From assembly GCA_964506505.1 (NCBI GenBank), contig CAZDKY010000003.1:44673-108672 (forward strand): DNA of 64,000 nucleotides, written 5' to 3'. Position 1 is the first letter of the stretch, and each line of letters opens with the position of its first letter. Source of the DNA: an uncultured Syntrophomonadaceae bacterium. GTDB lineage: Bacteria > Bacillota > Dethiobacteria > DTU022. The translations under genes were made by a program, and so were the position numbers. Under the pieces are notes generated by a model. That model ran no database searches. It had not been told where the DNA came from and was given only the letters and a program-made list of their open reading frames with translations. Positions 10,687 through 19,884 of the stretch are shown in pieces.

Positions 10687-12663
10687 ATGCTGCGTAAAAT
10701 AATTGGCCCACTGGTAATTATGCTGATAGCTATGCTGGCTATCGGCGCAGGGGGTTACTATCTCGAAGAAGGGTTTCAAACAACCGGTGCGGGTAGCTAT
10801 ACCCCGGTTTTTGAATTATCACCGGAAGAAGATGAATCAACAGGACAGGATGAATCGGCAAAAACCTATGAAACACCGGCTTATAAAGACGAAACAGTAT
10901 ACGTGCTTCTCGATCACGACGGATCGGTTCTGGAACAGCAGATTGTCAATCGGCTTTACGGGCAGCACGATCCCGAAGCTCCCCTGGTTGCTGATTACGG
11001 AACTTATCTTTCTGTGGAGAACATGACATCTTCCGCCGAGCCGGTAATAGAGGAAAACCGCCTCCTCTGGAAAAGTGAACTGCTCAAGATCGACGAGCTC
11101 TATTATGAGGGAACCCTCGATAAAGAACTGCCCGTTGATATCAATATCTCCTATTACCTGGATGGTGAACCGGTAGCTCCTTCTTCCCTGGGAGGACAAG
11201 GCGGAAGGCTGGAAATTGTCATTCAGGCAGAAAATAATCTCCTCTATGATGGGACAGTGAGTTATCATGATCATGAAGGCACACTGGTCACAGTGGAAGA
11301 AGAAAATTATGTTCCTCTGCTTGTCCAGGGAACAATGGATGTTGATTTAAATCGCTTTTCAAATATTGACACCGGAGAAGGACTTGATATAGTCATTGGC
11401 CAGAGCGCCAGTATCAATTTCATGATTTTCCCTTACCCTGAAGCTGAAATAAAGATCAGCATGGACGGCGATGACATTGAGCTGGGCAGCATTTCTTTCA
11501 TTGTTACCCCCCAGTTGCCCCCAATGAACGAGATCGATATAGAGGATGAACTCGTCGAGATGCTGGAAGGGTTTTCAATGCTTTCCGGAGGACTGGCTGA
11601 ACTGGAAGGGGGAGCCGATCTTTTACTGCAGGGGATGAGGCGTTTTGAGCAGGAAAGCGATCAAATGACAGGCATGACAGCTGAATGGAGCGCTCTTATT
11701 GACGAATACAGCAAACAAAAATCCACTTATGACAAACTGATTACAGACTTCGCCGCGGGGGATTTGACCGAGGTCGTTTCATCCATGCAGGATCTGCTCG
11801 GTGAAATAGAAAATCTCCCTGATCCGGGGACAATCACTGACGATATTGCCATCGCGGCCGACAGTTCGGCAGAACTAAAGAATCATATTGCCGTTCTCAA
11901 CAACAGCCTGGCCGCTGCTGAAGATACAGATACACGGATCAGGTCGGAAGCGGAACGCCTCGTTGCTGAAAACGAACCAGGGACGGGCTTACATGAACTG
12001 GGAATGCTCATCCTGTCGAGAGAAAAAACTCTCGACACCACTTTTGCAGAACGGCAAATTATTGATCGAAATATCGGTGAACTGGATGATGCCCTGCAAT
12101 CGCTGGAAAGGTTCTGGCAGGAAGATTATCTTCCGGAAGTAGCTTTCCTGGAAGAATTAAGTAGTGTCACCGACAATGAATGGTATGAAGCAGGAAAATA
12201 TCTCGAATTTGTAGCGGTAGAACTGGACAGCTTTGCTGATTACTACAGAGAAATTGACGACGTGATCTTAGAAGCGGAGGGCATGCTGGGGGATATATCC
12301 AGACTGCCCGGAGCATTAAAAGAGTTAACATATGGACAAACCAGGCTCACGGAAGGCCTGAAAGAACTGCGGGAAAGCGGAATCATGGCCATGGAAAAAG
12401 GATTAATTGAAGGAGTTAACGAAGCCAAATACGGCGCAGCCAAACTGGAACTGATGGAAAAGCTGGCTGATGATTATCGATCCTACGCCGACAATGTACA
12501 TAACCGGCACAGTAAGGTCCAGTTTATTATGCAGACTGAGAAAATTACCGCACCTGCGGAAGAGGATCCGGAAGAAGAAAAAGAAGATACTCTACCGGAA
12601 CCGGAGTACTTCTGGGCAATTGAATTCTGGAATAAAATGATCCATCTTTTCGACTTTCAATAA
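10687..12663 (+). CDS. Membrane-anchored extracytoplasmic protein with X-X-X-Leu-X-X-Gly heptad repeats (like the YhgE/Pip N-terminal domain)
   Basis: One N-terminal TM helix, an acidic linker, then a long helical region carrying FSMLSGG-LAELEGG-ADLLLQG and ALKELTYG-QTRLTEG-LKELRESG heptads. There is no C-terminal TM bundle. GGAGGGG ribosome-binding site. The gene is 22 nt downstream of the MMPL stop and 16 nt upstream of the TetR start. Confidence 0.65.
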   Translation: MLRKIIGPLVIMLIAMLAIGAGGYYLEEGFQTTGAGSYTPVFELSPEEDESTGQDESAKTYETPAYKDETVYVLLDHDGSVLEQQIVNRLYGQHDPEAPLVADYGTYLSVENMTSSAEPVIEENRLLWKSELLKIDELYYEGTLDKELPVDINISYYLDGEPVAPSSLGGQGGRLEIVIQAENNLLYDGTVSYHDHEGTLVTVEEENYVPLLVQGTMDVDLNRFSNIDTGEGLDIVIGQSASINFMIFPYPEAEIKISMDGDDIELGSISFIVTPQLPPMNEIDIEDELVEMLEGFSMLSGGLAELEGGADLLLQGMRRFEQESDQMTGMTAEWSALIDEYSKQKSTYDKLITDFAAGDLTEVVSSMQDLLGEIENLPDPGTITDDIAIAADSSAELKNHIAVLNNSLAAAEDTDTRIRSEAERLVAENEPGTGLHELGMLILSREKTLDTTFAERQIIDRNIGELDDALQSLERFWQEDYLPEVAFLEELSSVTDNEWYEAGKYLEFVAVELDSFADYYREIDDVILEAEGMLGDISRLPGALKELTYGQTRLTEGLKELRESGIMAMEKGLIEGVNEAKYGAAKLELMEKLADDYRSYADNVHNRHSKVQFIMQTEKITAPAEEDPEEEKEDTLPEPEYFWAIEFWNKMIHLFDFQ

Positions 12664-13812: not shown

Positions 13813-15558
13813 TCATAAAAAGGTAAAATTATCGACATCAACCAAACCGCGGTCGGTAATTTTCAGCGAAGGGATTACCGGCAAGGCCATAAATGAAAGG
13901 GTGAGAAAAGGCTGCTGCAGATCGGTGCCCAGTTTGTGGGCAGAGGAAAGCACTGCAGACATTTTTTGGGCCACAATTTCCGCCTTTTCAGCTGTCATCA
14001 ATCCAGCGACGGGAAGAGGCAGGCTCGCTTCCACCAGGTTATCCTCTCCGACAACTACAAAACCACCGCCAAGGCTGGCCAGCTCGTTTACAGCAGCAGC
14101 CATTGCCTTTTCCGAAGCTCCGACCACAATTATGTTATGGGAATCGTGGCCGACACTGGAAGCAATTGCTCCAGCCTGCAGGTTCAACCCTTTGATCAGG
14201 GCCGCAGTCATTCCTCCTCCTTTTCCATGCCTCTCAATTACTGCAATCTTGTTCAGCTCCGGACCTGGCCGGGCGGAAATAGTCCCGTCATCAAGGCGCG
14301 GCACCTGGATAAAAAGTTTTTCTGTGATCAGCTGCCCGGGAATAATACCAATCACCGGTACCTGTTCCGATGGATATGAAAGGGTAAAATCTTTTTCCTG
14401 CAGGGGCCTGTTCAATTTTACTGTGCAGCAGGCGGATCGGGGGAGTTCATAAGCAGCAACATCGGTTAACATATGTCCTGCCCGGGCAACCTGCCGGCCG
14501 TCTTTAAAAACCATCTGGACCGGAAATTCATTCAAGTCTTCGAAGATAACAAGGTCAGCCCGGTAACCAACAGCCACTGCTCCACGGTCATAAAGCCGGA
14601 AATGACGGGCGGCATTGTAGGAGGCAACCTTAACAACCGTAAGAGGTTCCGCCCCGAGCTCAACAGCTGTCTTCAGCAGTTCATCAAGGTGCCCCTTTTC
14701 AAGCAGCTCACCCGCTTCCCGATCATCGCTGCCGAACATGAACATATCGCTACTGGCAGGGGTGACAAGGGGCAGCAATTCGGCCAGGCTTGAAGTCGCC
14801 GAACCGTGCCTGATAATTATTTTCATTCCGTTCCGCAGCTTTTCACGGGCTTCCACGGCAGTAATCGATTCATGATCAGTAGAAATACCGCTACCTGTAT
14901 ATGCCTGCAGGGCACGACCACTGAGGGCGGGGGCATGCCCATCAACCACTTTTCCGGCTCTGCGGGCGGCAAATATTTTCTGCAGCACCTCTTCGTTCCC
15001 ATTTAACACCCCTGGATAATTCATCATTTCACCCAGGCCAACTACCCGTGGATGAGCCAGAAGCGTGGATACCTGCTCGGCATTTATTTCGCCTCCACTA
15101 GTTTCCATCCCACTGGTGGGCACACATGAAGGAACCGTAGCAAAAAAATCACAGGGCAGTCCTGCAGAGGCCGCCAGCATCAGGGCTACGCCTTCCACAC
15201 CCATAACATTGGCAATTTCATGCGGATCGTTAACAATGGCTGTTGTCCCATGCGGAACTATCAGCCTGGCCAGTTCCGGCGGTAAAAGAAGAGTGCTCTC
15301 AACATGCAGGTGAGCATCGATCAGCCCCGGTGCCACATAATGTCCTTCGAGATCAACGGTTTCTTTGCCTTTCGTATAATCACTGCCCACACCGGCGATT
15401 CGTTCTCCGGAAATGGCAACGTTGCCTTTTTCAATTTCCAGGGTAAAAACATTGATCAGACGCCCGTTTTTGAGCAGGAGATCGGCCGGTTCACTTCCCT
15501 GCGCTACAGTCAGTCTCTTTTTTTCTTCTTCAAGCATTTTCTTGTGATCTTGATCCAT
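13813..15558 (-). CDS. ade: Adenine deaminase
   Basis: 581-aa amidohydrolase. PGLIDAHLHVES is the metal-binding HxH motif, and overall sequence resembles AdeC. GGAGGA ribosome-binding site 7 nt upstream. Confidence 0.85.
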   Translation of the reverse strand: MDQDHKKMLEEEKKRLTVAQGSEPADLLLKNGRLINVFTLEIEKGNVAISGERIAGVGSDYTKGKETVDLEGHYVAPGLIDAHLHVESTLLLPPELARLIVPHGTTAIVNDPHEIANVMGVEGVALMLAASAGLPCDFFATVPSCVPTSGMETSGGEINAEQVSTLLAHPRVVGLGEMMNYPGVLNGNEEVLQKIFAARRAGKVVDGHAPALSGRALQAYTGSGISTDHESITAVEAREKLRNGMKIIIRHGSATSSLAELLPLVTPASSDMFMFGSDDREAGELLEKGHLDELLKTAVELGAEPLTVVKVASYNAARHFRLYDRGAVAVGYRADLVIFEDLNEFPVQMVFKDGRQVARAGHMLTDVAAYELPRSACCTVKLNRPLQEKDFTLSYPSEQVPVIGIIPGQLITEKLFIQVPRLDDGTISARPGPELNKIAVIERHGKGGGMTAALIKGLNLQAGAIASSVGHDSHNIIVVGASEKAMAAAVNELASLGGGFVVVGEDNLVEASLPLPVAGLMTAEKAEIVAQKMSAVLSSAHKLGTDLQQPFLTLSFMALPVIPSLKITDRGLVDVDNFTFL

Positions 15559-15739
15559 TTTAATTCCTCCATCAGACAGGCTTTACCTTAAATATTCACC
15601 CTTTTTATAAGATCATCCTTTTTCAGTATTCCTGTAAGGCTAAATTATTTACAGTGATGGGACAAATGACCGGGTCGGGAACCATAAGTGAATCCTGCTG
15701 GTCATCATAATAAAGCTACTTTTTTGAGGGGGACTAAAA

Positions 15740-16981
15740 ATGTTTTGGGCAAAAAACCGGTTATACGCTGCTGTAACTATGGCTTTAATTGTTATGCTGT
15801 CATCCGCGGGATGCAGTTTGCCAGACCTGCCGGAAGGAGAAGCTGCCCCTGTAGAAGAACTCGATGAACGCCTGATTGAATCAAACAATGGATTTGGCTT
15901 CACTCTTTTCAAAAAGCTGCATCAGGAAGATAAGGGACGCAATTTGTTAATTTCACCATCCAGTATCCTGACCGCCCTGGCAATGGCCAGTACAGGCGCG
16001 GAAGGCGAAACACGAACGGCAATGGAAAAGACCATGTTCCTGACAGGAATGTCCAGAGAAGAAATCAACAAGGCTTTTGCCGATCTGCTTACTATCCTGC
16101 AGAATCCTGATCCGGAGGTCGAGCTGGTCGTGGCCAACTCACTCTGGACACGCAAAGGCCTGGAACTTAATGAAACCTTCATCAAGCAAAACCACGATTT
16201 TTATGACGCTGAAATAACGGATCTGGACTTTTCCAACTCGGACGCCGCCGGTGTCATCAACGACTGGGTCAGGGAAAAAACAAATCAGAAGATAGATGGA
16301 ATAGTTGAACCGCCCATAAATCCGGAAACGATCCTCTTTCTGATTAACGCCCTCTATTTCAAGGGCGCATGGGCCGAAGAATTTGATCCGGATCAAACCC
16401 GCGAAATTCCCTTCAAACTACCCGATGGAACAACAAAGGAACATCCGGTAATGTTTAAAAACGGCGAGCTTGAGTACCTGGAAAATGATCTCTTCCAGGC
16501 TGTCCGTCTTCCGTACGGGAAAAATGAACGGATTGCTATGACCCTGTTTCTGCCTGCCGGGGATTTAACTCTGGAACAAATTTTAAGCGAACTGGATAAA
16601 AAAAGCTGGGATAGGTGGAACGAAGCCTTCGACAGCATGGAAGGCGAATTAGGACTGCCTCGGTTCAGCTTTGCCTGTGAACTGTCTTTAAATAAAGTCC
16701 TCTCAGATCTGGGTATGGAAATCGCTTTTGATGAAAATGCCGCCGATTTCAGCGGAATGCGTCCCATCCCGCCGCGCCTGTTTATAAGTAAAGTGAAACA
16801 TAAAACTTACATCGACGTGACCGAGGAAGGCACAGAAGCAGCGGCTGTTACTTCTGTTGAAGTGGAAGTAACAGCCATGCCGGAGCAATTTTCGATGATT
16901 ATTGACCGCCCCTTCTTTTTTACCATCAGTGATGAAATGACCGGGACGATCCTTTTCATGGGAACCGTTTTTGAACCCTAA
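15740..16981 (+). CDS. Serpin-family serine protease inhibitor, predicted lipoprotein
   Basis: Lipoprotein signal peptide ..MLSSAGC. Serpin core motifs NALYFKGAWAEEF, a reactive-centre-loop region (EEGTEAAAVTSVEVEVTAMPEQ), and a C-terminal FFFTISDEMTGTILFMGTVFEP signature. Confidence 0.85.
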   Translation: MFWAKNRLYAAVTMALIVMLSSAGCSLPDLPEGEAAPVEELDERLIESNNGFGFTLFKKLHQEDKGRNLLISPSSILTALAMASTGAEGETRTAMEKTMFLTGMSREEINKAFADLLTILQNPDPEVELVVANSLWTRKGLELNETFIKQNHDFYDAEITDLDFSNSDAAGVINDWVREKTNQKIDGIVEPPINPETILFLINALYFKGAWAEEFDPDQTREIPFKLPDGTTKEHPVMFKNGELEYLENDLFQAVRLPYGKNERIAMTLFLPAGDLTLEQILSELDKKSWDRWNEAFDSMEGELGLPRFSFACELSLNKVLSDLGMEIAFDENAADFSGMRPIPPRLFISKVKHKTYIDVTEEGTEAAAVTSVEVEVTAMPEQFSMIIDRPFFFTISDEMTGTILFMGTVFEP

Positions 16982-17011: not shown

Positions 17012-17065
17012 AAAAAAGAACGGAAGACAGCATGCCCGAGACATGTTTATCTTCCGTTCTTTAGT
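17012..17065. terminator. Bidirectional rho-independent terminator
   Basis: Perfect 11-bp stem agaacggaaga / tcttccgttct with an internal loop, flanked by A-runs upstream and T-runs downstream. Confidence 0.6.
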
Positions 17066-17593
17066 TCATAATTAAACTTCCTTTATCTACGCAAGGTGGT
17101 CACAAGGTGGTTTTTTGTTTATTCCCCTGCAGAAAGCAGGGATAAATAACACTACAACGGTTCCTGCTTCATCAGCTCTTGTGAAGCATACTGACGACCA
17201 GGGCAATGACCAGGCCGATGGCGAAACCACCAATCAGGCCATTCGTTTGGTAATACAGCACTCCCAGCAGAGGGAATACGGTAAATCCAATAATAACAAT
17301 GATCAGATGGAGCGGTTTTATCCTAAAAATAATTAATCATCCTTTCTTGCAGTTATAGTAACCTGTCTTTTGGCCAAAATTGTACTGTTATTCAGAGCAA
17401 AAAAAAATTTGCTCTGTGCAAATACCCACGCTATTTTATTATATCTGCTTTTTGACCTGCAGGCAAAAAGGCTCAGTCGTTGCCAGAGATGCTGACAGCT
17501 GACCAGCCGGTCTGAGGACTGATTAGGAAAAAGATCCTGAAAAGTACGCCGGGTTAGGATACTGAAGCACTATAATTGCATTAAAGATAGTTG

Positions 17594-18676
17594 CTAATTG
17601 GTATCACTGCCTCCGGCCCCGCTGCTCTTAAGCATTTCTCGCATTCCATCAGTCTTTTTCATTTTCCCATCGGGTAAAATCCAGAGAGCTTCAAAATTGT
17701 CTAAGCTCTCAACCAGGGCATAACTTTGCTCGAAGGGAACCAGGAAAAGAGTTGTTGACATAAAATCAGCTACGGCGGCGCTGTCGGCCGCTACTGTAAC
17801 TACTCGAAAATGCTCCGCCGGCATCAGCGTTCCAGGGTCAATAAGGTGATGATAAGCTTTACCATCTACCACATAGTAACGCTGGTAATCTCCGCTGGTA
17901 TCAACGCTGCCGCCTGCCAGGTAAATAACATCGAGGAGTTTTTCTTCACCACCAAAAATCGAAGCATCGGGATCCTGCACTCCTATACCCCAACGATCCC
18001 GCTCCTCCTCCGGCGGTGTACCGATGAGGCGAACGTTCCCTCCTGCACTAATGACCCCTGCTGTCAGGCCGGCGGCCTCGATTTCTTCCGCCACTATCTC
18101 CGTGGCAAACCCTTTAGCCACAGCACCAACATCAATGCTCATCCGTGAATCGGCAAGAAAAACAGTATTTTTTTCTGCATCTACGATTACCTGATCCAGA
18201 TCAGTGTAACTGGAGGCCTCAATTAGGTCTTCCAGCGGTGGGACTTGGGCACCGGCAGGGTCGTAATCGGCTTCAATGCGGTAGTGATGCCAGATTTTTA
18301 AAACCGATCCCATGGCTATATTGGTTATGCCACCCGTACGGGTATGCATTTGCTTACTGAAAAGAATTAAATCAATGATTTCCGGCGCCACTTCAACAGG
18401 TTTAATCCCGGCATTATCATTGACAGTTTTGAGGTTGCTAACTCCTTCGTAATTTAGATAAATATCATAAAGCCGGTGCAATTCCATATATCGATCATGG
18501 ATCTGATCCAGGTATCGATCAAACTCTTCCTCGTTGTCCGCATAAGCGACCACCCTGACAAGGGTATCGAAAGTATCAAAAAATGAATCGGTATATTTAT
18601 GTTTGACGGGTTGTTCCGCTCCTGAGCATCCGGCAATAAATAAGCTAAACATCATTATCAGTATGATTTTTTTCAT
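17594..18676 (-). CDS. apbE: FAD:protein FMN transferase (ApbE/Ftp family), lipoprotein
   Basis: Lipoprotein signal MKKIILIMMFSLFIAGCSG and ApbE-like core (..DVGAVAKGFATEIVAEEI.., ..DTSGDYQRYY..). I preferred the ATG at 18676 over the ORF-track start at 18766 because it has a GAGGGA ribosome-binding site. Confidence 0.75.
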   Translation of the reverse strand: MKKIILIMMFSLFIAGCSGAEQPVKHKYTDSFFDTFDTLVRVVAYADNEEEFDRYLDQIHDRYMELHRLYDIYLNYEGVSNLKTVNDNAGIKPVEVAPEIIDLILFSKQMHTRTGGITNIAMGSVLKIWHHYRIEADYDPAGAQVPPLEDLIEASSYTDLDQVIVDAEKNTVFLADSRMSIDVGAVAKGFATEIVAEEIEAAGLTAGVISAGGNVRLIGTPPEEERDRWGIGVQDPDASIFGGEEKLLDVIYLAGGSVDTSGDYQRYYVVDGKAYHHLIDPGTLMPAEHFRVVTVAADSAAVADFMSTTLFLVPFEQSYALVESLDNFEALWILPDGKMKKTDGMREMLKSSGAGGSDTN

Positions 18677-18768
18677 GTTAATCCCTCGTAATATTAATTC
18701 GCCGTTATAAAACACTCCCCTGCCTGAACAGGGGAGTGTTTGTTTCCATCCACTTTTAGGGGGCATTA

Positions 18769-19884
18769 TTACCTGGCATTTTCAGCCGCTTCAGCAACTG
18801 CGGCCAGATAACTTTCGACTGTAATGGTGACCAGGGTTTCCAGCTCGGGGACATCGGGAACATGCTGGTGTGCTTCATCCCTGGTTTTTACCGGCATACC
18901 GGTGATCTCATCTATTGTCTTGCCAACCATCCATTCCTCAAGCGAGGCAATCTGCTCATACCACTCTTTGCCTATTTCTGAGATATTACCCATACCGTAG
19001 TCATCACCGAGCTGCACTTTAGTTTTCGGCGCTGCCGACTTATCGGAAGTGACAGTACCTTCGGCATCATAGTTGATTCTGATCTGGGCATTGTCAATCT
19101 GGGCTCCGACAACTACACCTTCAGCATCAAAAGCCACTGCAGCCATAACCGTATCGACCTGGGCCAAGGGATTAACCTCAGCATCTTCATCAAGCCCCAT
19201 AGACCTGGCTGTTGATATATTCTGCCCCAGGCCGGCTGTCACTGCGCCCTCAACTTCAATTGCATTGTTGTAAGCATACTCGACAGCGGCAATGTAATCT
19301 TCCACAGTGATGGTAACCAGGGTCTCCAGTTCGGGAACATCGGGGACATTCTGATGAGCTTCATCCCTGGTTTTAACCGGCATATTTTTGATTTCTTCAA
19401 TAGTTTTGCCGATCATCCAGTTTTCAAGTTCATTCATCTGTTCATACCACTCTTTACCTATTTCGGAAATGTTACCCATTCCGTAATCATCGCCCCGTTC
19501 ACGCTTCGTTTCCGCCGGCTGGGAAATATCGGTGGAAACCTGCATTCCTTCGTCAAAAGCAACGCGGGTCTGGGCATTGTCAATGGTCACGCTGACTACT
19601 TTCCCTTCTGCATCAAAGAGGACAGCTGCCATCACAACATCTGCCTGAGCTGTCGGATTGATACCGGCATCAAAATCTGCATCTGTCGATTTGGCAACAG
19701 ATGTCACTACACCAAGCCCCAGTTTCTGAGTACCGTCTGTGCCGGTTTCTTCTTCAGGCTCTTCTTCCGGGGTTTCTTCAGGGGTTTCTTCCCCCGGTGT
19801 TTCTTCGACCGGAGCGTCCCCACAGCCGGCAACCAGGAAAATGGCCAGGAAAATAACCAGCAATAAACCTAATCCCTTTTTCAT
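18769..19884 (-). CDS. Lipoprotein with an acidic Pro/Glu/Thr linker and two tandem roughly 155-aa repeats of an unknown domain
   Basis: Signal peptide MKKGLGLLLVIFLAIFLVAGC, then the linker EETPGEETPEETPEEEPEEE, then two highly similar domains each containing ..VMAAVxFDAEGxVV..IDNAQ..GDDYGMGNISEIGKEWYEQ..GKTIxEI..MPVKTRDEAHQxVPDVPELETLVTITVE. GAGGAGG ribosome-binding site. Confidence 0.75.
   Translation of the reverse strand: MKKGLGLLLVIFLAIFLVAGCGDAPVEETPGEETPEETPEEEPEEETGTDGTQKLGLGVVTSVAKSTDADFDAGINPTAQADVVMAAVLFDAEGKVVSVTIDNAQTRVAFDEGMQVSTDISQPAETKRERGDDYGMGNISEIGKEWYEQMNELENWMIGKTIEEIKNMPVKTRDEAHQNVPDVPELETLVTITVEDYIAAVEYAYNNAIEVEGAVTAGLGQNISTARSMGLDEDAEVNPLAQVDTVMAAVAFDAEGVVVGAQIDNAQIRINYDAEGTVTSDKSAAPKTKVQLGDDYGMGNISEIGKEWYEQIASLEEWMVGKTIDEITGMPVKTRDEAHQHVPDVPELETLVTITVESYLAAVAEAAENAR
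18772..19722. repeat. Internal tandem gene-segment duplication, two units of about 470 bp, inside the lipoprotein gene
   Basis: DNA of about 18772-19239 and 19240-19722 is recognisably similar. By eye I estimate roughly 75-80% identity over long runs, for example ..accagggtttccagctcggggacatcgggaac.. against ..accagggtctccagttcgggaacatcggggac.. The two units encode the two protein repeats. Confidence 0.7.

Follow-up and report, generated by a model that had tools for sequence, protein, structure and literature searches.

A predicted membrane-anchored inhibitory serpin of an uncultured Dethiobacteria bacterium, one of a large clade of lipobox-bearing serpins from environmental Bacillota

The gene at positions 15740-16981 (+ strand) of the 64,000-nucleotide stretch analysed here, hereafter the window, encodes a serpin. 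The window is part of contig CAZDKY010000003.1 of an uncultured Syntrophomonadaceae bacterium of the Dethiobacteria. We consider it likely, with a probability of about 0.7, that the protein is an inhibitory serpin that is exported through the Sec pathway, probably carries a lipid on Cys25 and stays tethered at the outer face of the cytoplasmic membrane, where it would shield envelope proteins. A lipobox-bearing serpin with an apparently intact reactive-centre loop (RCL) as well as the C-terminal serpin signature had been proposed at this locus by an earlier reading made from the letters of the DNA (the sequence-only reading). The open reading frame (ORF) was exact, and both the loop and the signature were borne out by our analysis.

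Assignment to the serpin superfamily (MEROPS I4) is secure because profile, sequence, model and structural comparisons concur. The Pfam profile PF00079 (Serpin) matched residues 48-413 (window 15881-16978, + strand), corresponding to positions 2-370 of the 370 in the profile, with 379.9 bits against a cutoff of 27 and an E-value of 1.9e-113; no NCBIfam family matched the protein. A sequence search of the PDB returned 201 distinct serpin sequences, the best of them native miropin from Tannerella forsythia (5ncs, E 2.7e-69); next came conserpin, neuroserpin, antichymotrypsin and tengpin. The AlphaFold2 model, for which 54 homologs were used, reached a mean predicted local distance difference test score (pLDDT) of 85.8 and a predicted template modelling score (pTM) of 0.82, and only two of its stretches, residues 23-36 and 365-380, were of low confidence (pLDDT < 50). 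Native miropin (5ncs_A) was also the best Foldseek match of this model (E 4.3e-40, TM 0.81/0.89, 36% identity); tengpin ranked 14th, and the 50 PDB matches listed were all serpins by description (probability 1.00, TM 0.75-0.93). The C-terminal signature is MIIDRPFFFTI at residues 386-396 (16895-16927, + strand), located by a regular expression for a PS00284-type pattern; within it, D389, P391 and F392 are invariant or nearly so across homologs. The mature protein (residues 25-413) is calculated to be acidic, with a mass of ~43.8 kDa, a pI of ~4.4 and 70 Asp and Glu versus 34 Lys and Arg residues.

To describe conservation, we aligned the protein with its 120 best homologs (121 sequences in all). 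The RCL runs from P17 (E362) to P4' (E382), EEGTEAAAVTSVEVEVT|AMPE (16823-16885, + strand), as placed by counting from the hinge and by alignment with alpha1-antitrypsin (A1AT), conserpin-AATRCL and miropin. In this numbering P17 is Glu362, P15 Gly364, P14 Thr365, P12-P10 Ala-Ala-Ala and P9 Val370; P4-P1 read Val-Glu-Val-Thr378 and P1'-P4' Ala-Met-Pro-Glu. The hinge E362-E-G-T-E-A-A-A-V370 fits the inhibitory consensus ExGTEAAAA (PMC8233489). The sequence-only reading had named bulky or charged residues in the hinge as a sign of a serpin unable to insert its loop; none was found, P14 and P12-P9 being small and uncharged. With the exception of P16, the hinge positions P17-P10 are invariant or nearly so in the alignment. 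The distance from P15 Gly364 to P1 Thr378 is the canonical 15 residues, with ungapped alignment to the A1AT loop, and the low pLDDT of residues 365-380 is in keeping with a flexible, exposed RCL. By all sequence criteria applied, the serpin thus appears to be inhibitory, and the invariant hinge suggests that it would trap proteases covalently; inhibitory serpins do so in complexes stable to sodium dodecyl sulphate (SDS) and have a metastable native state.

Non-inhibitory serpins of the binding or chaperone type exist, in which the fold is kept and trapping is lost. That the protein discussed here is one of them seems to us very improbable. The divergent hinge GTRAFSF of one of two serpin paralogs in Lawsonibacter does indicate that such drift occurs in Bacillota serpins. 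However, the hinge of the present protein is a perfect match to the inhibitory consensus and is invariant across the clade, the P15-P1 spacing is canonical, and the hinge motif is kept in 125 of 125 of the nearest representatives of single-domain length in an exhaustive search described below.

The scissile bond is predicted between P1 Thr378 and P1' Ala379 (16871-16876, + strand). Thr378 took the P1 position in three alignments, opposite the Met of the A1AT loop grafted into conserpin (6ee5), opposite Thr369 of miropin (VKT motif) and opposite Met358 in a pairwise alignment to A1AT, whose sequence served for numbering only. In agreement with this placement, Lys368-Thr of miropin has been numbered P2-P1 (bioRxiv 10.1101/2025.09.05.674453). 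The consensus of the orthologous loops is VEV[G/E/R][V/M/L]T[A/S]MPE[T/Q]F: P4 is Val, Ile or Met in 117 of the 121 sequences, P1 is Thr in 102, P2' is Met in 90 and P3' is Pro in 118, and a hydrophobic P2 and an Ala or Ser at P1' are also among the positions kept. The identity of the residues at P3 and P2 is highly variable (entropy 2.35), with Glu at P3 in 14/121 homologs.

A signal peptide was assigned to residues 1-24 (15740-15811, + strand), with K5 and R7 in the n-region, an h-region from L8 to L20 and the ending S-S-A-G; the AlphaFold2 model shows residues 2-22 as a helix. The first 25 residues are MFWAKNRLYAAVTMALIVMLSSAGC, and the LSSAGC motif that the sequence-only reading took for a lipobox corresponds to residues 20-25. 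Within it, the lipobox proper is S22-A23-G24-C25 (15803-15814, + strand), and Cys25 (15812-15814) would be the lipidated residue 1 of the mature protein. The PROSITE PS51257-type lipoprotein rule is satisfied (charged n-region, hydrophobic h-region and a Cys within positions 15-35). Moreover, Cys25 is present in 117/121 sequences, three of the four others being gapped at this position as N-terminally short proteins and one having Tyr, and position -1 is Gly in 115/121 and Gly or Ala in nearly all. Apart from these positions, no part of the protein varies more than the signal peptide (mean column entropy 2.69 versus 1.04 for the serpin body). As Cys25 is conserved beside so variable a stretch, we predict with good confidence that it is lipidated. 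A disulphide role for Cys25 was considered and rejected, since the sole other cysteine, Cys313, is not conserved.

Based on these data, we propose the following mechanism. The serpin would leave the cell through Sec by means of the signal peptide seen in the sequence, be processed by Lgt and LspA at Cys25 and be held by a ~16-residue tether. The closest relatives, from Bacillota and Dethiobacteria, are assumed to be monoderm; if so, the cell surface to which the sequence-only reading assigned the protein would be the cytoplasmic membrane's outer face. The exposed RCL would serve as bait, and a serine protease would attack at or beside Thr378-Ala379. At the acyl-enzyme stage the loop would insert into beta-sheet A as strand 4, dragging and deforming the protease, as the invariant hinge suggests, and the outcome would be a covalent, membrane-tethered dead-end complex. 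In this way, the serpin may guard proteins in the envelope and near the membrane against extracellular proteases made by the cell itself or by its neighbours. Because the tether is short, the serpin would meet only proteases that reach the zone next to the membrane, which favours envelope protection or a check on proteases that the cell itself exports.

Several observations weigh against this reading, and they concern the lipobox, the target and one related lineage. Regarding the lipobox, the strict pattern [LVI][ASTVI][GAS]C and the Gram-positive G+LPP pattern both failed because position -3 is Ser22; most orthologs have Gly at this position and are likewise off the [LVI] consensus. Three other predicted lipoproteins encoded in the window, namely ApbE, its 371-residue neighbour and a PstS-like binding protein, carry canonical IAGC, VAGC and MAGC motifs. 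Given the non-canonical Ser at -3, lipidation is likely but not certain, and the lipobox of the sequence-only reading is upheld by the PROSITE-type rule and by conservation but not by the stricter patterns. The same residues invite a different explanation, in which signal peptidase I cuts an ordinary Sec signal, for instance after S-A-G24, or the signal remains as an uncleaved anchor, leaving a soluble or transmembrane-anchored serpin. Small residues at -3 and -1 also suit an AXA-type signal peptidase I site, and transport peptides of various kinds are found on most prokaryotic serpins (PMC8233489). Nevertheless, cleavage by signal peptidase I would not need a Cys after the h-region and a Gly or Ala at -1 kept so widely while the neighbouring positions are free. 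In addition, the PROSITE-type rule is satisfied, and the lipobox Cys is equally frequent in remoter relatives and present in both Lawsonibacter paralogs. We therefore hold a non-lipoprotein serpin to be quite improbable.

Regarding the target, Pfam annotation of ~40 ORFs of the 64-kb window revealed no secreted S8 or S1 protease. The peptidase-like proteins found there (an S33-type hydrolase, S58/DmpA, FtsH and a Rce1-like protein) are cytoplasmic or membrane housekeeping proteins, and no protease gene lies beside the serpin orthologs in six related contigs. As no linked protease gene was found, the target is one that we infer, and its class rests on analogy. A serine protease of subtilisin or elastase type, acting at the cell envelope, is the likeliest candidate, because P4 and P2 are hydrophobic and P1 is small, and because there are precedents: miropin inhibits subtilisin, elastase and others (10.1101/2025.09.05.674453), a Clostridium thermocellum serpin inhibits subtilisin (PMC6718151) and tengpin inhibits leucocyte elastase (PMC1905895).

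The third point comes from the contig of MAG72_tar_biofilm (L008:6001-7241, JAXHVH010000022.1), a metagenome-assembled genome (MAG), where the 75% identical ortholog beside adenine deaminase is pseudogene-like. In this copy Cys25 is replaced by Arg, codons 72 and 289 are in-frame stops, and the hinge contains a frameshift with further stops after it. Unless the assembly of the MAG is faulty, the serpin seems to be dispensable in this lineage.

An alternative to a general shield is that the serpin is the dedicated regulator of one endogenous envelope protease, for example a subtilase of sporulation, germination or maturation. This idea draws on the constancy of the loop. P8-P4 and P1-P4' (T-A/S-M-P-E/D) are kept across orthologs of 55-96% identity, and the P6-P6' stretch lies at the 61st percentile of 12-residue segments of the protein, with a conservation close to the protein average. 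As judged from this alignment, P6-P6' is not hypervariable, unlike what is expected of arms-race serpins, and the fact that it is no more variable than the body argues against an arms-race target. Furthermore, the clade is environmental and host-less, consisting of Dethiobacteria and Bacillota MAGs (PMC10376724), and the serpin is single-copy at conserved chromosomal positions. However, the variability of P3 and P2 speaks against a dedicated regulator, as do the lack of a linked protease gene in all seven contexts examined, the lack of a candidate partner protease in the data examined and the decay of the gene in the lineage described above. Taken together, we regard a dedicated regulator as unlikely, and we prefer the general, membrane-anchored shield.

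The tether and N-terminal segment, residues 26-42 (15815-15865, + strand), was delimited by the low pLDDT of residues 23-36 and by conservation. It ends in the motif AAPVEELD (residues 35-42, window 15842-15865), which is nearly invariant in the clade: A35 is kept in 120/121 sequences and P37 in 118/121, D42 is likewise nearly invariant, and the positions of L27/F28 and L34 are mostly hydrophobic. Judged by this conservation, the stretch from Cys25 to helix A does not look like a free linker. HMMER aligned AAPVE..LDERL of the query with ANPVSEKNIDEKF of tengpin, pairing AAPVE (residues 35-39) with tengpin ANPVS (residues 47-51). In tengpin, residues 39-51 (ANLMDRIKANPVS) hold the native state against latent collapse, with N40-L41-M42 being critical (PMC1905895). 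It is possible that the AAPVEELD segment may act as such a latch and not as a passive tether. The likeness is limited to the distal ANPVS, tengpin N40-L41-M42 has no clear counterpart, and the model is unconfident for residues 23-36. A combined reading, in which the serpin is a housekeeping regulator of one endogenous envelope serine protease and carries a tengpin-like latch beside its lipid anchor, is suggested by the conservation of P4, P1-P4' and AAPVEELD in a free-living, host-less anaerobic clade. We regard it as speculative and rather improbable; if a dedicated target and an anchor-adjacent latch were both true, this would be one of the earliest cases of a bacterial serpin whose physiological self-target is defined.

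Among serpins of known structure, miropin (PDB entries 5ncs, 5nct, 5ncu and 5ncw) offers the closest precedent. It shares with the serpin described here a lipoprotein-type signal, the identical hinge EEGTEAAAVT, P1 Thr and P3' Pro, and it has been shown experimentally to be a lipoprotein on the cell surface and to form covalent complexes with proteases (10.1101/2025.09.05.674453). Differences are nonetheless evident. The anchor of miropin lies in the outer membrane of a diderm pathogen of the Bacteroidota, whereas a cytoplasmic-membrane anchor is predicted for the present serpin in an organism of Bacillota type. The Lys at P2 is the basis of the inhibition of trypsin, plasmin and Kgp by miropin, but Val377 stands at P2 here, and P4-P2 read M-V-K in miropin versus V-E-V. 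The miropin loop is also two residues longer on the primed side, and the two proteins are only 36% identical. With miropin-like multi-site serpins, which have several productive reactive-site bonds in the RCL and a broad inhibition spectrum that extends to cysteine proteases, the present serpin shares P1 Thr and P3' Pro but not P2 Lys.

Tengpin of Thermoanaerobacter tengcongensis (PDB entries 2pee, 2pef and 2vh4) is, by comparison, a Bacillota serpin, matched at E ~5e-50 and 32% identical in the fold alignment. Both proteins have an N-terminal extension before helix A, in which AAPVE aligns with ANPVS; however, this region has 56 residues in tengpin, and only 9 residues separate Cys25 from AAPV here. 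The other characterised prokaryotic serpins are all remoter from the present protein than miropin. Those of C. thermocellum, the Bifidobacterium longum serpin, the siropins, chloropin (8gxv, among our PDB matches) and thermopin have an inhibitory hinge and a single serpin domain, as here. As inhibitors, they act on subtilisin, elastase or enzymes of the chymotrypsin type (PMC6718151, PMC8201313). The siropins and the B. longum serpin act in the gut, on host proteases, and C. thermocellum serpins 1 and 2 are predicted to be cellulosomal and not lipid-anchored (PMC6718151).

The rarity that the sequence-only reading implied was overstated, in view of the miropin precedent and of the number of close relatives. 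At E <= 1e-20, a word-indexed protein search gave 3885 proteins, of which the best 120 are 53-96% identical and nearly all ~413 residues long; the named ones bear the label 'serpin family protein' and come from Dethiobacteria, Dethiobacter sp. or Bacillota MAGs. More than 100 orthologous Dethiobacteria/Bacillota clusters have the same architecture and RCL; in examples such as P0001, P0028, P0058 and P0094, the ~413-residue length, an xGGC or SAGC lipobox and the loop VEV[GE][VM]TAMPE[TQ]F recur. Nothing substantial separates the present serpin from these orthologs, the minor differences being Glu at P3 and Ser-Ala in place of Gly-Gly at -3/-2. A genome scan found relatives of 96% and 75% identity in two Bacillota MAGs.

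An exhaustive search of 1.84 billion cluster representatives detected 44,733 serpin-like proteins at E <= 0.001 from all kingdoms. Among the nearest 150 of these (representatives of 50%-identity clusters), 125 are of single-domain length, and in 62-74 of the 125, depending on the rule, the N-terminus is of lipobox type. By these counts, a lipobox on a bacterial serpin is common in this part of the family and is not a distinguishing feature, and the serpin at 15740-16981 is, on its sequence relationships, a further ortholog of a known and already annotated group. A published classification of prokaryotic serpins by type of signal peptide has 'membrane anchored' as one of its categories (PMC8233489). 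Our literature search found no paper joining Dethiobacteria and serpins.

Two kinds of relatives with other architectures were also observed. Seven of the nearest representatives (P0122, P0124, P0126, P0136, P0164, P0165 and P0177) are multi-serpin-domain or fusion proteins of 750-1375 residues with two to four serpin-matching stretches. Lawsonibacter hominis NSJ-51, a gut Clostridia member, encodes two tandem serpins (L010:4666-7176) with the lipoboxes LLSAC and LLGGC; the hinge of one, EKGTEAAAVT, is of the normal inhibitory type, whereas that of the other, EQGTRAFSFT, is divergent, and the latter protein may be non-inhibitory.

The serpin gene begins with ATG and has 413 codons and a TAA stop, and GAGGGGG, a Shine-Dalgarno-like sequence, was read at 15726-15732 (+ strand), 7 nt 5' of the start. 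It lies between adenine deaminase (13813-15558, - strand; Adenine_deam_C, E 5.8e-60), the neighbour that the sequence-only reading had correctly named, and ApbE (17594-18766, - strand). Since both flanking genes are on the - strand, the serpin gene is necessarily monocistronic, as had been proposed. A consensus promoter scan found no sigma-70-type promoter on the + strand in the 181-bp upstream spacer. The GC content of the serpin gene (0.471 versus 0.468 for the window) and the GC content at its third codon positions (GC3) match the window and the neighbouring genes, so that it is a resident, native gene; recent horizontal transfer was rejected on the same grounds.

Downstream, a hairpin at 17015-17062, with a 13-bp outer and a 6-bp inner stem, starts 33 nt past the serpin stop, and RNA folding gave it -24.2 kcal/mol (z = -4.4, with 0/200 shuffles as stable). 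Its strength agrees with the strong terminator claimed for the gene. Seven A flank it on the 5' side and the 3' side offers a short UUUAGUU on the + strand, while seven T are read on the - strand; the hairpin is therefore probably bidirectional and, judging from these tracts, would terminate minus-strand transcripts as well as, or better than, the serpin transcript. A consensus terminator scan did not list the hairpin. It is kept in L001 and L009, two relatives whose DNA is ~96% identical to the window and thus too near to inform on non-coding conservation.

We also noted a short reading frame on the - strand (17172-17340) for a very hydrophobic peptide (...LIIVIIGFTVFPLLGVLYYQTNGLIGGFAIGLVIALVVSMLHKS) in the 610 bp that separate the serpin terminator from the ApbE stop. 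An AAGGA box precedes it, yet it lacks a canonical start codon ahead of an internal GTG; upstream of it lies a 10/12 sigma-70-like site (17466-17438), and downstream lies the serpin hairpin. No gene was called as its counterpart in the 96% relative L001, and it had no Rfam match; Rfam and tRNA scans of the window gave no matches.

The surroundings of the gene are those of an ordinary Bacillota chromosome. The window encodes Trk K+ uptake, MMPL, TetR, adenine deaminase, ApbE, a pyridoxal-phosphate enzyme, Usp and GlpX, as well as arginine deiminase, a BCCT transporter, the Pst system with a two-component regulator, PFOR, folate genes, FTHFS, FtsH, TilS and Mfd. Two arrangements of the serpin gene were observed: it is divergent from adenine deaminase in the window, L001, L002, L007 and L008, and it lies between Usp and SerRS-ArgRS-GerM in L003, L004, L005 and L006. 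A functional link between the serpin and adenine deaminase was considered and set aside as synteny, since this neighbour is kept in five contexts and other orthologs are found in the order Usp-serpin-SerRS-ArgRS-GerM.

Two further genes of the window deserve mention. Directly upstream of and co-oriented with the gene of the flavin transferase ApbE is one for a predicted lipoprotein of 371 residues (18769-19884, - strand; VAGC) with a Glu/Pro-rich linker and an internal duplication present in two copies (...GDDYGMGNISEIGKEWYEQ...VKTRDEAHQ.VPDVPELETLVTITVE.Y). Pfam offered no match at E <= 1e-5; the protein might be a substrate of ApbE. An ORF of 658 residues (10687-12663, + strand), also free of Pfam matches, lies between the MMPL transporter and TetR genes, and this three-gene order recurs in L001.

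The conserved loop with Thr at P1 and Met at P2', together with the acidic mature protein (pI ~4.4), makes this serpin a convenient choice for expression and for profiling with proteases. The 64-kb window and the relatives analysed gave no sign of thermophily, halophily or other extremophily of the source organism. The only cultured member of the clade is natronophilic (PMC10376724), and by this relative, stability at high pH and salt might hold some applied interest. The serpin represents a clade of lipobox-bearing environmental Bacillota serpins that is large and uniform and that could help to answer the question of what bacterial serpins do where there is no host.

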